Of a stretch of DNA of 56,018 nt, positions 3,943 to 49,683 are shown in pieces. Below the pieces are notes generated by a model, which saw nothing but the letters and a program-made list of their open reading frames with translations, searched no databases and was not told the DNA's origin. Position 1 is the stretch's first letter. Every line of letters starts with the position of its first letter. A program made the position numbers and the translations under genes. The DNA is taken from NCBI GenBank assembly GCA_041671565.1, contig JBAZBH010000007.1, positions 1-56,018 on the forward strand. Reading direction: 5' to 3'. Source of the stretch: Patescibacteria group bacterium (GTDB taxonomy: Bacteria; Patescibacteriota; Patescibacteriia; JACRDY01).

Positions 3943-4050
3943 AAGTTCAAAACCATAAGTTCAAAGTTCAAATCAAGTTCAAAGGTCAAATACTGTCGAA
4001 GTTTTGACATTTGAACTTGATTTGAACTTTGCACTTTGAACTTTGGATTT
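3943..4050. repeat. inverted heptamer-array hairpin (AAGTTCA family)
   Basis: 3963-3990 vs 4003-4030 are 27/28 reverse-complementary, 12-nt loop. Confidence 0.9.
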
Positions 4051-4080
4051 TTAACCAAGTTATACTGTAAAAATGTTAAC

Positions 4081-4944
4081 TTACCTAACCACCACCCTTT
4101 CACCGTCGCTCACCATTGTCACCTCTCCCTCCTGGTCCGTCCGCCGCACCGCCGCCCCGGCGCGGATTAGCCGATTGACTACTCGGAGCGACGGGTGGCC
4201 AAATTTATTCCCCTGCCCCACGGAAATGGCCGCCAACTCCGGTTTGACGGATTTTAGAAATTCGACACCGGTAGAATAACTACTGCCGTGGTGGCCGACT
4301 TTTAAAACGGTTGATTTTAAGTCTTGCGGGGTGGCAAGCAGCGCCAGCTCACCGTCCCCTTCCAAATCGCCGGTCAGGAGAAAACTGGTCTCCTGATAAC
4401 GGAGCCGACCGACAATTGAACTATTATTGATATTTTCCACTTTTTTGCCTTTTAAATCAACCAGCGGATAAATAATTTCCAAACTAACATCAGATCCAAA
4501 ACTGAGATTCTGTCCCGCCAAACCGTAAGTTACTTTAATCTGCTTTTCAGCGATTAACCGCAAAAACTCTTGATAAGCCGGCTCGGGGAATAGGACGCCG
4601 GTCATTAAAACCTCTTTGACCTCATACCGACTCAGGACCGCCGCTAGGCCAACCACATGATCGGCGTGCGGGTGGGTCAAAATCACCAAGTCCAGCTGCC
4701 GGTCATTGAACGCTAGATGCCGGCCCAGGCAATCCAAAACTAAATTATCCGGCCCGCCGTCGATCAAGATATCTTGATTGCCTGGCGTTTGGACTAAAAT
4801 CGCGTCGCCCTGGCCGACATCGCAAACCGTCACTCGCAAGCCACGGCCATTATAACTATATTTAAAGCTAAAAAACGCGAGAATAGCTAGAACCGCTAAG
4901 ACACCAGCGAGAAATTTAACAAGTTTTTTTAATTTTAAATTCAT
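4081..4944 (-). CDS. ComEC-type metallo-beta-lactamase-fold nuclease (stand-alone C-terminal part of ComEC)
   Basis: DVGQGDA, ILIDGG, THPHADH, LLTGD, LKVGHHGS, FGHP motifs. Confidence 0.9.
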   Translation of the reverse strand: MNLKLKKLVKFLAGVLAVLAILAFFSFKYSYNGRGLRVTVCDVGQGDAILVQTPGNQDILIDGGPDNLVLDCLGRHLAFNDRQLDLVILTHPHADHVVGLAAVLSRYEVKEVLMTGVLFPEPAYQEFLRLIAEKQIKVTYGLAGQNLSFGSDVSLEIIYPLVDLKGKKVENINNSSIVGRLRYQETSFLLTGDLEGDGELALLATPQDLKSTVLKVGHHGSSYSTGVEFLKSVKPELAAISVGQGNKFGHPSLRVVNRLIRAGAAVRRTDQEGEVTMVSDGERVVVR

Positions 4945-4965
4945 AGATTAGAACTTTATAAAGAA

Positions 4966-5035
4966 GAATAGCGAATAGTGAATGATGAATAGCGAGAACA
5001 ACACCTTATTATTCGCTATTCACTATTCGCTATTC
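4966..5035. repeat. inverted heptamer-array hairpin (GAATAGC family)
   Basis: GAATAGC GAATAGT GAATGAT GAATAGC ... ATTATTC GCTATTC ACTATTC GCTATTC; contains the comEC stop codon. Confidence 0.9.
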
Positions 5036-6351
5036 TTTCTCATCAACCTTCTGCCATAAACCCACCCCAGCAACCCCGCATAACAACCCGCCGCCCACCA
5101 CCAGCCAACCTCTATCCCGCCAATCGCCGCGCCACGCCAAGACGCCAATTCCTCCACCACTGCCAAAAAATACCAAAGTAACAACCAGACTGGCCAAAAC
5201 AAAACTTTAGCGAGGCTAAGGCTGACTAAACCCACCGCCGACACCGCCGCGCCAAGTATCATAATCGGCGTCACCACCGGCGCGATTAAGACATTGGCGA
5301 GCGGCGCCACCACGGAAAACAACCCAAACTGATAAATAATTAACGGCAAAGTGGCAACTTCAGCCGCCAGCGTCATTATTAGCGAATCACGAAAGCCAAG
5401 AGTATTCGTTATAGCGAACGGCAACTTGTCAAATAAATTTTCTATTCTTTCGGTAAAAACCATCATCCCCCAAACAGCGAGAAACGACAGCTGAAACCCG
5501 ACATCGTAAAGCAGTAGCCACGGATTGATCGCCAGCATCACCGCGGCGGCCAAAATTAAACTGAACGAAGAATTATTGAGGCGGCCCGCTTGCATTGCCC
5601 ATAACCCCAAAAACCCCATAATCACCGCCCGCACCGCCGATGCCGGCCAGCCGATCACCAAGAGAAAAACTAAAAGGCTGCCGGTAGTCAAATAAAAAAT
5701 CACTTTCCGCCGGAAACCGAGAGCGAGAAAAAGGTTGAATAAAATACCGCCGATTATAGTCACATGCGAGCCGGAAACGGCGATGATATGAGTCACGCCG
5801 GTCTGGGCAAACTCTTGCATCAGCCTCGTCGGCATTTCACTCTGCTGGCCAAATAATATCGCCTTTAGGAGCGCTGACTCCGGCGAGGGCATGCCGCGGT
5901 CGATTATATTATTAAATCTACCCTTGACCCAAAGCGTTTGAGCATAAAACCAATTGCCTTGTCCGCGCGAAATTAACTTAATCTGTGGCTGATAACAAAG
6001 CGAATAAATTTTCAACCGCGCCAGATAACGGTCATAAGCAAAACCATCAAACGGCTCCGGCGCTTTTAACCGGCAATCTACCTCCAGCCGGTCGCCGTAC
6101 TGATAAACCGGATACGGCGCCGCGGTGATTAAAACCCGGCCTCGAAGCCGATCCCCGGCAACAACCAATTTTTGGGCGTCGCCGGTTGGTTGCGGCTCGC
6201 GGATCACCACGCCGGTAAAAGCCGTCTGCCCTTGGTCGTTGTAAAAAGCCAGTTGCCCCGCGTCAACTTTCGGCCACCACAAAAGATAGCGCACTCCGGC
6301 TAGCGCCAAAATCGCCGCTATTAGCCACCATCTTGCGGTTTTCATCTTCAT
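5023..6351 (-). CDS. comEC: ComEC/Rec2 competence channel protein (OB + Competence domains)
   Basis: GVTHIIAVSGSHV, SAVRAVIM, DVGFQLSF, APLANVL; likely start MKMK at 6351. Confidence 0.92.
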   Translation of the reverse strand: MKMKTARWWLIAAILALAGVRYLLWWPKVDAGQLAFYNDQGQTAFTGVVIREPQPTGDAQKLVVAGDRLRGRVLITAAPYPVYQYGDRLEVDCRLKAPEPFDGFAYDRYLARLKIYSLCYQPQIKLISRGQGNWFYAQTLWVKGRFNNIIDRGMPSPESALLKAILFGQQSEMPTRLMQEFAQTGVTHIIAVSGSHVTIIGGILFNLFLALGFRRKVIFYLTTGSLLVFLLVIGWPASAVRAVIMGFLGLWAMQAGRLNNSSFSLILAAAVMLAINPWLLLYDVGFQLSFLAVWGMMVFTERIENLFDKLPFAITNTLGFRDSLIMTLAAEVATLPLIIYQFGLFSVVAPLANVLIAPVVTPIMILGAAVSAVGLVSLSLAKVLFWPVWLLLWYFLAVVEELASWRGAAIGGIEVGWWWAAGCYAGLLGWVYGRRLMRKNSE

Positions 6352-6450
6352 GGCGGGATTATAGCGGAAGTGAGTTAAAATAATTCTAAAATCCAGAACC
6401 AACGAGTTTAGAATTATTTAATGTTTATTTTAGAATTCGTTAATGTAGGA

Positions 6451-48484: not shown

Positions 48485-48507
48485 AGTTTATTCAAATAAT
48501 AATGAAG

Positions 48508-48601
48508 AGTATTCAGGGAGCAGTATTCAGTATTCAGGGTGTCCTTATTCACCGTTCGTGAATATAGTTCCCTGAATACTGAATACTGCTCCCTGAATAC
48601 T
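48508..48601. repeat. perfect 32-bp inverted repeat of AGTATTC units
   Basis: AGTATTCAGGGAGCAGTATTCAGTATTCAGGG at 48508-48539 and its exact reverse complement at 48570-48601. Confidence 0.95.
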
Positions 48602-48605
48602 TATT

Positions 48606-49541
48606 TTATAATTTCTCTTTATAATTTTGATAATATCTCTTTTGAAGTTCTGCTAAAGTGAACCGGTGCGTCTGCGTGCCATACTTCTCCACGGTGTAAA
48701 CCGCGACCGTGTTGCCAAGGCGAGCGGCTTTAGCGAGCGAATAACCGGCTAGCATGCCTTTAATGAATCCGGCGCGGAAAGCGTCGCCGGCGCCGGTCGG
48801 GTCAGAAGTATTTTTGGGCTTCGCCGGCGGAATAATTAACTTCTTGCCGGCGGAAAAAATCTCATCGCCATTGGCGCCTTTGGTCACTATTAAAATTTCA
48901 ACTATTTTTGCCAACTGTGGCAGTTTAATTTTCAGCCGGTTGAGAATCAGCTGGATTTCGTAGTCATTACCGACTAGCACTTTGGCGCCGGCAATCGACT
49001 GCTTTAAATCCAAGGCGGTAAAAGCGGTAATCTGCTGGCCCGGGTCAAAAATATAAGGAATTTTCAGCTGCCGGTACAGTTTAGCATATTCCAGCATTCT
49101 TGGCAGGTAGTCCGGCGAGATGATGGCAAGGCTGGCGCCTTTGATTTCCTTGACCACTTGGCAGTATTTAACATCGGTCGCGCCGCCATAAAAACCGGTA
49201 ATCTGGTTGTCGTCCCGGTCAGTCATAATGTAAGCGCTGGCGGTGAACTCGTTTTTGACTTTTTTCACCCGGCTGATATCAATCTGATTTTGCCTTAACC
49301 ATTTTTCGTACTTCGGGAAATCTTCGCCCACCACGCCCAACACCACCGGGCGCTCACCGAGTAAAGCGAGGTTGTAAGCGATATTGCCCGCCGTGCCGCC
49401 AAAACTCTCTCGCAATTTATTTATTACAAAACAAACATTCAGGATGTGAATTTTGCCCGGCAAGATGTGGTCCCGGAACCGGCCGGGAAAATCCATGATG
49501 CGGTCGTAGGCGAGCGAGCCGGAAACTAATATTTTGGTCAT
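48606..49541 (-). CDS. PfkB-family nucleoside (adenosine) kinase-like
   Basis: GSLAYDRIM, GGTAGNIAYNL, DPTGAGDAFRAG. Confidence 0.88.
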   Translation of the reverse strand: MTKILVSGSLAYDRIMDFPGRFRDHILPGKIHILNVCFVINKLRESFGGTAGNIAYNLALLGERPVVLGVVGEDFPKYEKWLRQNQIDISRVKKVKNEFTASAYIMTDRDDNQITGFYGGATDVKYCQVVKEIKGASLAIISPDYLPRMLEYAKLYRQLKIPYIFDPGQQITAFTALDLKQSIAGAKVLVGNDYEIQLILNRLKIKLPQLAKIVEILIVTKGANGDEIFSAGKKLIIPPAKPKNTSDPTGAGDAFRAGFIKGMLAGYSLAKAARLGNTVAVYTVEKYGTQTHRFTLAELQKRYYQNYKEKL

Positions 49542-49586
49542 ATAACTAATAATTTTATTTTGTGAATAGAAAAATGTATTTCTTGG

Positions 49587-49683
49587 AGTATTCAGGGAAC
49601 AGTATTCAGTATTCAGGGAACTACATCCGCGAACGGCTGATAAGAACCCCTCCCTGATCCCTGAATACTGACCCCTGAATACT
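49587..49683. repeat. second AGTATTC-family hairpin
   Basis: 49587-49618 is 31/32 identical to 48508-48539; the right arm is more degenerate. Confidence 0.9.

Follow-up and report, generated by a model that had tools for sequence, protein, structure and literature searches.

Why do several genes of one bacterial contig end in a long hairpin built of short repeated units, and why does one such structure enclose an entire gene? The contig comes from a Patescibacteria group bacterium (JBAZBH010000007.1 of assembly GCA_041671565.1) and is called the window here, meaning the whole stretch of DNA that was analyzed, at its full length of 56,018 nucleotides. It is contig C7 of the source genome, G000, which has 1.12 Mb in 32 contigs and is 93% complete. 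An earlier note on this DNA had described seven hairpins and one gene-enclosing structure of the same architecture, and had taken them as the empty and loaded forms of a single system. We lean toward the reading that the eight structures form one class of small palindromic dispersed elements and that free-standing PF05635 genes are wrapped in arms of the same sequence families. This reading comes with proposals for the mechanism, which are given below together with the points that weigh against it.

Hairpins and gene cassette of the window

An inverted-repeat search of the window found all seven hairpins and the inverted repeat around the gene where they had been placed before, with arms of 26-53 nt that are 77-100% complementary. 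The flanking genes of all the window hairpins lie on the minus strand, and the hairpins were folded as RNA on this strand and given z-scores against dinucleotide shuffles. The folds are far better than those of the shuffles, with z-scores of -7.0 to -16.3 in six of the seven. No strand is assigned to the hairpins themselves, which are listed here with the complementarity of their arms:

3938-4055, no strand: gene-less hairpin of the AAGTTCA family; 53-nt arms, 79%; -47.8 kcal/mol, z=-8.9
4955-5046, no strand: gene-less hairpin of the GAATAGC family; 37-nt arms, 81%; z=-7.2
41689-41768, no strand: gene-less hairpin of the GCGAATG family; repeat 41700-41756, 28-nt arms, 82%; -42.4 kcal/mol, z=-7.0
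42621-42696, no strand: gene-less hairpin of the GAATAGC family; repeat 42621-42689, 30-nt arms, 77%; z=-7.5
47105-47222, no strand: decayed gene-less hairpin of the AAAGTCAAAAC / CTCAAAG family; repeat 47112-47196, 26-nt arms, 81%; z=-3.35 (for 47103-47224)
48508-48601, no strand: gene-less hairpin of the AGTATTCAGGG family; 32-nt arms, 100%; -68.2 kcal/mol, z=-16.3
49587-49683, no strand: gene-less hairpin of the AGTATTCAGGG family; 33-nt arms, 85%; z=-7.4

Almost all of the hairpins had been said to begin within about 10 nt of the upstream stop codon or to contain it. This is true of six of the seven, which contain the stop, touch it or lie no more than 6 nt from it. For example, the hairpin at 4955-5046 stands between the two ORFs into which comEC is split, with the stop of the upstream half (5023-5025) in its right arm, and the right arm of the hairpin at 42621-42696 includes the stop of a GDP-mannose dehydratase gene (42677-42679). 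The last base of the hairpin at 49587-49683 overlaps the stop of a nucleotidyl transferase gene by 1 nt. Distances of 2, 2-6 and 4 nt separate the hairpins at 41689-41768, 47105-47222 and 48508-48601 from the stops of a glycosyltransferase gene (41771-42616, minus strand; stop at 41771), an S-adenosylhomocysteine (AdoHcy) hydrolase gene (stop at 47225) and a PfkB kinase gene (stop at 48606), respectively. The hairpin that departs from the rule is the one at 3938-4055, which lies 25 nt past the stop (4081) of a metallo-beta-lactamase gene (4081-4944, minus strand).

The families of these hairpins extend beyond the window. The hairpin at 3938-4055 is one of 30 copies that have the core CAAAGTTCAAATCAAGTTCAAAG and a conserved loop of 24 or 42 nt, and a gene-carrying copy of the AAGTTCA family is present in G001, the genome of a sister genus (locus L209). 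The AGTATTCAGGG family has 22 copies, with its loaded copy at C1:135604-136255, and the loops of its two copies in the window (48508 and 49587) are in opposite orientations. The arms of the decayed hairpin at 47105-47222 are of the same kind as those of a loaded cassette at C20:12203-12652. The GCGAATG family (F18) has five copies in G000; its units had been described as about 9 nt long, and their spacings are actually 9-11 nt. Tandem Repeats Finder (TRF) reported period-7 arrays at every window site but that of this family, 41689-41768. Intrinsic terminators have a short GC-rich stem and a U run, whereas the stems here are 23-35 bp long and A/T-rich, without a consistent T run, and none of those in 3800-7100 was listed by a terminator scan.

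The eighth structure is a gene-carrying cassette, with the following parts:

6404-6445, plus strand: upstream module of 42 nt with a sigma-70-like promoter, TTTAGA-18 nt-TAGAAT (promoter scan)
6451-6483, plus strand: left (5') arm of AGATTTA/AGAATTA heptamers; 33 nt, 94% against 6864-6896; TRF period 7, 4.6 copies
6496-6885, plus strand: four-helix-bundle gene of 129 aa, PF05635 / TIGR02436 (profile searches)
6864-6896, plus strand: right (3') arm, which pairs with 6451-6483
6909-6939, plus strand: separate GC-rich stem and T run, intrinsic-terminator-like (from the sequence; terminal hairpin in the fold)

The open reading frame (ORF) at 6496-6885 matches PF05635 at E=1.3e-34 (119 bits; cut-off 33.8) and TIGR02436 at E=5e-32 (110 bits; cut-off 24), and its closest solved structure is 2GSC, the protein XCC0516 of Xanthomonas campestris (E=1.5e-17). 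It begins 12 nt past the left arm, and its final seven codons and stop lie inside the right arm. When the predicted transcript 6443-6940 is folded, the arms pair over their whole length around the ORF (minimum free energy -145.8 kcal/mol, z=-5.6). The stem at 6909-6939 is not among the hits of the consensus terminator scan; it has the look of an ordinary intrinsic terminator. By its predicted parts, the cassette is a self-contained transcription unit made of a promoter-like module, a 5' arm, an ORF, a 3' arm and a terminator, and its repeat-bounded portion (6451-6896) has a comEC-type gene on one side and a fibronectin-domain gene on the other.

The 42-nt module (GAGTTTAGAATTATTTAATGTTTATTTTAGAATTCGTTAATG) occurs with 100% identity at C7:6404-6445, C6:30467-30508 and C9:39732-39773, and the three PF05635 proteins encoded downstream of it have a mutual identity of only 33-44%. 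Diverged copies of the module precede five further PF05635 genes (blastn-short). The module lies within the left arm at some genes and outside it at others, and partial copies are found near Y1-transposase-like ORFs and a GxxExxY gene. PADLOC gave no match for the cassette protein.

Dispersed families of hairpins

Across the 1.12 Mb of G000, there are 248 periodic hairpins, and a shuffled genome has none. The inverted-repeat finder gave 380 raw loci, 358 of them non-overlapping, and the 248 are those with a loop of no more than 200 nt and periodic arms. Since a control genome shuffled within 200-nt blocks gives 0 loci against the 380 raw loci of the real one, the hairpins do not arise by chance. 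The period is 7 in 165 hairpins, 8 in 53, 10 in 14 and 11 in 13, and it is 6 or 9 in only three. The median arm length is alike whatever the period (31, 27, 27 and 23 nt for periods 7, 8, 10 and 11). As a side observation, 245 of the 248 have an arm period of 7, 8, 10 or 11, and multiples of three almost never occur.

A typical element is about 80-120 nt long and has arms of about 23-35 nt, each made of 3-5 irregular units of 7, 8, 10 or 11 nt, around a family-specific loop. The copies in G000, about 250 in all, fall into no fewer than 25 sequence families. Coding sequence makes up about 85% of G000, yet 241 of the 248 lie between genes, and as dispersed, intergenic, palindromic and non-coding repeats that come in families, they are of the general type of REPINs, which are built from repetitive extragenic palindromic (REP) sequences. 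Between co-directional genes there are 197, one in a quarter of such gaps. The distance from stop to hairpin has a genome-wide median of 9 nt, with the stop inside an arm in 39 cases; 137 hairpins are nearer the upstream stop and 60 are nearer the next start. TRF alone gave 708 period-7 rows genome-wide.

Within a family, the copies have a common irregular order of units, a common loop and sharp end points, and their flanks are unrelated. This is seen in large families such as AAGTTCA and AGTATTCAGGG, whose copy numbers are given above, and AGATTTAAG, with 15 copies. The orientation of the loop with respect to transcription is random (7 sense and 10 antisense in one family, 10 and 12 in another). 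The elements can also be nested, since the stems of AGATTTAAG contain complete hairpins of three other families.

The two arms of a hairpin had been reported to mirror each other's irregularities, and the genome-wide comparison bears this out. Mean arm complementarity is 0.905 and drops to 0.763 when the units of one arm are permuted, with the real value being the higher one in 180 of 195 hairpins. The earlier note had offered two explanations, namely that the arms are copied from each other or that they are selected against each other. Deviations from the family consensus (n=258) comprise 180 broken pairs, 60 G-U pairs and 18 compensated changes. Compensatory evolution inside families was rejected on the last of these counts, and no site-wise selection on pairing was seen. 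Because so few deviations are compensated, the mirrored arms are attributed to inheritance from a palindromic master whose copies are decaying. Co-evolution of the two arms, site by site, is set aside as the source of the mirroring.

Could the arrays instead be independent microsatellites that grew by slippage and are locally palindromic, with no common origin and no system behind them? In bacteria at large, there is an excess of heptamer simple-sequence repeats (PMC4692102), and solo arrays are present in the window. Local slippage would make each array independent, whereas dispersed copies here agree in their irregular sequence of units, in the loop and in where they end. Arm complementarity is lowered when the units are permuted, and two genera have the same families at different places. 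Independent microsatellites are therefore given very little credence, and the hairpins are to be regarded as dispersed repeats.

The two genera in question are those of G000 and G001, whose orthologous proteins are about 58% identical and which have hairpin families in common. Among 20 conserved gene junctions, 8 have no hairpin in either genome, 7 have one in G000 only, 3 have one in G001 only, 2 have hairpins of different families and none has the same family in both. The junction between the PfkB and AdoHcy hydrolase genes may serve as an example. In the window, it is 121 nt long and nearly all hairpin; in three relatives it is 0-6 nt long, and in most of the others it has unrelated hairpins, some of them heptamer arrays. 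The families are conserved but the positions are not, and therefore the hairpins behave as mobile or repeatedly re-seeded elements. Spread by copying or mobility is supported by these comparisons, indirectly. The terms autonomous and non-autonomous, which the earlier note had applied to loaded and empty forms, serve as labels only.

A comparison of orthologous sites for loaded, empty and absent states had also been suggested. States with and without a hairpin were found in the 20 junctions, and a PF05635 gene was found at the PfkB/AdoHcy hydrolase junction, the one site followed through 19 relatives, in none of them. A metagenome scan gave a closest relative with 67% protein identity. In one metagenome relative (L061, 8927-9552), this junction has a small ORF whose start is NYN/LabA-like by eye.

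PF05635 genes between the same arms

If the hairpins are dispersed repeats, what ties them to the gene in the window? In G000, 14 matches to PF05635 score above the Pfam cut-off, and inverted unit arrays enclose all 14 of these genes (12 sets of arms were found by program and 2 were seen by eye). Among randomly chosen positions of the genome, 0.7% reach an inverted-repeat score of at least 18. A 15th match (C1:98897) is weak, Avd-like and beside a reverse-transcriptase gene, and it has no arms. For eleven of the 14 cassettes, an arm match of no less than 16 nt at 85% or more was found in 1 to 21 gene-less hairpins, the cassette of the window having 21. About 40% of the periodic hairpins match some loaded cassette of the G000 assembly. 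The genome-wide scan for a link between inverted arrays and PF05635 genes, which the earlier note had called for, thus found it, and the shared arms support the view that gene-carrying and gene-less structures are one system.

The logic of loaded and empty copies stands in part. The genes are all armed and most of the arms have gene-less kin, but the gene-less copies are not simple empties. A tblastn search of 12 PF05635 proteins against 86 loops gave nothing below E=0.19, and the possibility that the loops are decayed PF05635 genes was rejected on this result. Because their loops are family-specific and without gene remnants, the gene-less hairpins are not loaded copies minus the gene. Loaded copies, for their part, do not retain the two halves of the family loop, so they did not form simply by insertion of the gene into the tip of a hairpin. 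Some of them are made of a full hairpin, the gene and an extra arm (C1:135604; C9:5425).

The same association is found in other genomes. In G001, all eight PF05635 genes are armed, and their arm families recur as 32 gene-less hairpins in 167 kb. Three families that are gene-less in G000, namely AAGTTCA, AAAGTTATAAAGTTG and ACATTAAAACA, have a loaded copy in G001. The window protein has a G001 ortholog at 70% identity, whose arms are likewise of the AAGATTT kind. Among 28 further loci of relatives, 14 have an enclosing repeat with a score of at least 15 and about 20 have period-7 arms where expected. Of nine PF05635 genes on plasmids (of Nostocales, Picosynechococcus, Geminocystis, Stanieria, Azospirillum and Gemmatirosa), seven have heptamer arrays on both sides, and two are wedged among cas genes.

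In Xanthomonas euroxanthea, X. arboricola and Luteimonas sp. R10 (L343-L345), a single PF05635 gene lies inside inverted GGGAWTS arrays and between accB and accC, the neighbors having been identified by reading the flanking coding sequence. These genomes have 51-110 matches to GGGAATCx3. The cassette arms are GGGAATC-type in Xanthomonas and GGGATTS (GGGATTC-type) in Luteimonas, and GGGATTC makes up 31% of the matches to dispersed arrays in Luteimonas against 9-17% in Xanthomonas, which is the predicted direction, weakly. The pairing of gene and arms can thus be recognized in three distant lineages. No PF05635 gene was found near GGGAATCx4 arrays among 80 loci from many phyla, as would be expected if genes are far fewer than gene-less arrays. 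The exact GGGAATCx4 arrays (L222-L301) are from Xanthomonadaceae, Gemmatimonadaceae, Moorena, Thermoanaerobaculia, Elusimicrobia, a Vibrio and a metagenome-assembled genome of Thermoplasmata.

Several findings weigh against the reading favored here. No target-site duplication was seen, by inspection, in the flanks of 77 copies from four families, and no insertion polymorphism was seen, the other public contigs from exact-protein look-ups being 100% identical to the window. Gene-less and loaded copies have only their arms in common, as the family-specific loops of the former are absent from the latter. Protein identity shows no relation to arm similarity among 22 cassettes (Mantel r=0.01), and proteins that are 60% identical are found within unrelated arms. 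Two large families have no loaded copy in the 93%-complete G000, namely AAGTTCA (30) and ACATTAAAACA (12). Arms also enclose other cargo, one GxxExxY gene and one DNA methyltransferase gene, and two of the nine plasmid genes have direct instead of inverted arrays. The number of PF05635 genes is only modestly correlated with hairpin density (Spearman rho 0.40, p=0.015, n=36, without phylogenetic correction), and 19 of 26 gene-bearing genomes show no hairpin in the sample (Fisher p=0.08, again without phylogenetic correction). In five relatives (G003, G004, G016, G017 and G019), 5-13 PF05635 genes are accompanied by hardly any gene-less hairpins or by none. Finally, we know of no catalytic function for PF05635.

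Some of these points would suit a different explanation, the strongest of the rivals, which we consider possible and yet unlikely. The hairpins could be RNA elements selected by the host, with a role in processing, 3'-end stabilizing or punctuation, and spread by ordinary recombination, while independent selfish PF05635 genes settle by preference in them or next to them. This would fit proteins whose relatedness does not follow the arm family, the many genomes that have genes yet no gene-less hairpins, the GxxExxY and methyltransferase genes between arms, and the loaded copies made of a full hairpin, gene and extra arm. The hairpins also stand in operons directly after stops, and they flank a putative tmRNA (transfer-messenger RNA) gene, recognized by eye. 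However, a host function needs neither 25 unrelated stems nor the conservation of loops within families. Nor is the occupancy of orthologous junctions conserved between the sister genera, the PfkB/AdoHcy hydrolase junction is only 0-6 nt long in some relatives, and changes within families are uncompensated. Insertion into hairpin tips should leave halves of the family loop in loaded copies, which lack them. Lastly, ten relatives free of PF05635 genes have 0 hairpins in 559 kb, compared to 45 in 1.59 Mb of gene-bearing relatives.

The less usual cargo can be described briefly. The GxxExxY gene (TIGR04256 / PDDEXK_3; PD-(D/E)XK-like) is the only one in G000 and lies at C19:4378-4964 between 45-nt inverted arms of CACAGAT-type 10-mers; this 10-mer family has 13-17 gene-less hairpins. 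At C8:9200-9924, a DNA methyltransferase-like gene of 222 aa lies between true half-arms of TAATTAAGAAT units. Three other genes, atpF, ruvX and ybaK, were rejected as cargo, as full hairpins of one family merely occupy the neighboring gaps. The putative tmRNA gene is at C2:52573-53167, where two full CACAGAT-family hairpins stand around about 430 nt whose 3' end is tmRNA-like by eye (…GGTTCAACTCCCGCCATCTCCA).

Possible mechanism, known systems and other features

How might such elements spread? Copies that descend from master palindromes are scattered over intergenic sites in both orientations, mostly no more than 10 nt past a stop and sometimes nested. What follows is proposed on the reading of a single class of dispersed elements with PF05635 genes in the same arms. 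The solved relatives of the PF05635 protein form what we take to be a pentameric nucleic-acid-binding barrel. The protein would recognize the array of units that marks its family, and it may promote the copying or retention of that family. By analogy with the 23S rRNA intervening sequence (IVS), RNase III would cut the 25-33-bp stems in RNA, and this cutting would let the elements sit in operons at little cost. An RNase III gene is encoded in G000 (C24:12016-12408).

A wider proposal can be put forward only tentatively, and we doubt that it will hold as a whole. PF05635 pentamers would be sequence-specific array readers that drive a transposase-free copy-and-paste of their own arms, perhaps by way of an RNase III-excised stem-loop and a reverse transcriptase. 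The IVS, the short tandemly repeated repetitive (STRR) sequences, the arrays of Xanthomonas and Geobacter and the genes in cas and accBC loci might then be one pan-bacterial mobile class, comprising both autonomous and non-autonomous members. Avd, a homologue of PF05635, has its only known role tied to a reverse transcriptase.

The relation of gene-less families to loaded cassettes resembles that of REPINs to their RAYTs (REP-associated tyrosine transposases) in logic and the rRNA IVS in build. In the 23S rRNA IVS of Leptospira and of Coxiella burnetii (helix 45), as in the window cassette, a PF05635/S23p gene is enclosed by a terminal-repeat stem of about 28-33 bp. In Coxiella, the IVS has a PF05635-family gene, its stem is 28 bp long with GACAGAT heptamers in tandem, and RNase III cuts it; its mobility has been proposed, never demonstrated (PMC4990558). 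The cassette at 6451-6896 has both the long enclosing stem and the PF05635/TIGR02436 ORF inside it. It differs in lying between protein-coding genes and not in helix 25 or 45 of a 23S rRNA, the gene for which is absent from the assembly. It also has a promoter-like module and a terminator of its own, and about 250 gene-less hairpins in matching families accompany the cassettes of G000.

In REPIN-RAYT systems (PMC3116915, PMC3337134), as here, populations of intergenic palindromes form a family tied to one gene flanked by inverted repeats, and they occur in both orientations without target duplication. The associated gene here encodes a four-helix bundle and not a Y1 transposase of the HUH type, since the enclosed genes are 14 of PF05635, 1 GxxExxY and 1 methyltransferase. 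The stems are tandem arrays of 7-11-nt units, and instead of a GTAG or CGTC head (PMC3733652), the unit hairpins start with family-specific A-rich units. There are also many families in one genome, with 14 genes, compared to one or a few in REPIN-RAYT.

This precedent raises the question of whether the hairpins are ordinary REPs or REPINs moved by Y1 (RAYT-type) transposases of G000, with the four-helix-bundle genes as mere passengers. There are four weak Y1_Tnp matches in the genome, the best at E=5.8e-5, and two have GC-rich, GTAG-headed hairpins directly beside them (C1:130109-130247 and C1:152744-152882). The weak Y1_Tnp (RAYT-like) ORFs, of about 200-226 aa and with hairpins of the form GTAGGGGCGGACCC…GTCCGCCC, are:

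C1:129930-130247: weak Y1_Tnp (RAYT-like) ORF
C1:152565-152882: weak Y1_Tnp (RAYT-like) ORF
C4:35618-36144: weak Y1_Tnp (RAYT-like) ORF

The hairpins beside them, however, are a separate GC-rich family (F13/F23) of about 8 copies that has no unit periodicity, and together with the Y1-like ORFs it looks like a small classical REP/RAYT system, apart from the unit hairpins. The unit hairpins, by contrast, belong to 25 or more families that share neither a GTAG nor a CGTC head, and their arms enclose PF05635 genes in 14 cases and Y1 genes in none. Cassettes of Xanthomonas and cyanobacteria show the same pairing of gene and arms. Movement by Y1 transposases is accordingly judged improbable, if somewhat less so than independent microsatellites.

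Intergenic heptamer arrays, many of them in convergent pairs, are known from several bacteria, namely GGGAATC of Xanthomonas and GGGGAYT of Nostoc (PMC4692102), the hairpins of Geobacter metallireducens (PMC2700814) and the STRR sequences of cyanobacteria. The window sites with heptamers in tandem between genes belong to this type. In Xanthomonas, there are 186 GGGAATC arrays, 70 in convergent pairs, and their positions are conserved between close species (PMC4692102). The Xanthomonas arrays are G-rich and are read as quadruplex-forming, whereas those of G000 are A/T-rich. What sets the present case apart from the published arrays is that, in G000 and the Xanthomonas genomes examined, the array units also form the arms of PF05635 genes. 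The terms "S23" and "four helix" are absent from PMC4692102, and "four helix" is absent from PMC2700814.

Avd, the accessory protein of diversity-generating retroelements (DGRs), belongs to the same fold superfamily, and the window protein matches bAvd PF22296 at E=1.5e-5. It is set apart from Avd by its NF033474 score of only 23 bits, the cut-off being 80. G000 has five reverse-transcriptase matches (contigs C1, C3, C9 and C23), none of them on C7, and the window protein is not encoded beside a DGR reverse transcriptase with repeats. MITEs (miniature transposable elements with inverted repeats) are, like the hairpins, small, non-coding, dispersed and intergenic, with terminal inverted repeats and nested insertions. 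In contrast to MITEs, the hairpins show no target-site duplication and lack a parent insertion sequence that encodes a transposase. The interiors of gene-less copies are unrelated to those of loaded copies, and no PF05635 remnant in the 86 loops marks them as derivatives of internal deletion.

Three puzzles, each 10 to 35 years old, meet in these elements, namely the role of the IVS and its S23p protein, the nature of heptamer arrays and the presence of small four-helix-bundle genes inside operons such as cas and accBC. The identity of the gene arms with the stems of dispersed gene-less hairpins in G000, the sister genus and Xanthomonas ties the three together. Separate pieces are already published, including the IVS with ORF and heptamers (PMC4990558), the inverted pairs of heptamer arrays (PMC4692102, PMC2700814) and the PF05635 gene in cas loci (PMC3936711). 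No paper in the literature searched joins gene-less unit-array hairpins to PF05635 genes. If the protein does drive the spread, this would be a class of mobile elements without a recognizable nuclease or transposase. The question can be tested in Xanthomonas, which is cultivable, with a PF05635 crystal structure at hand.

The window has three further places with arrays that lack a partner arm, which the earlier note had overlooked:

130-162, no strand: solo arm of GCTATCG units, unpaired (TRF)
1392-1429, no strand: solo arm of CAACCTAA units (TAGGTTG family), unpaired (TRF)
55317-55371, no strand: two adjoining arrays of TTAGGAG and AGAGAAT units without a partner arm (TRF)

The genes next to the hairpins are ordinary (split comEC, sugar-nucleotide, glycosyltransferase, AdoHcy hydrolase and PfkB kinase genes). 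In the comEC region (4081-6402), an ORF with DUF4131 and Competence domains is followed by a separate metallo-beta-lactamase ORF, and the hairpin at 4955-5046 lies exactly between them. The split is kept in nine of ten relatives (open frames of 285-326 aa), and one relative has an open frame of 901 aa. The hairpin was rejected as the cause of the split, since relatives without it are also split and the split is conserved among them. The only Rfam matches in the window are two tRNAs on the minus strand, at 1182-1254 and at 2415-2476, the second being weaker (41.5 bits, covering only model positions 6-65).

The hairpins occupy much of the intergenic space of G000 and also affect how such genomes are assembled. 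Two public contigs from other runs (L413 and L414), which carry an identical GDP-mannose dehydratase gene, both stop at 42671, inside the arm of the hairpin at 42621-42696. As both end at the same base of the arm, repeats of this kind evidently break short-read assemblies.

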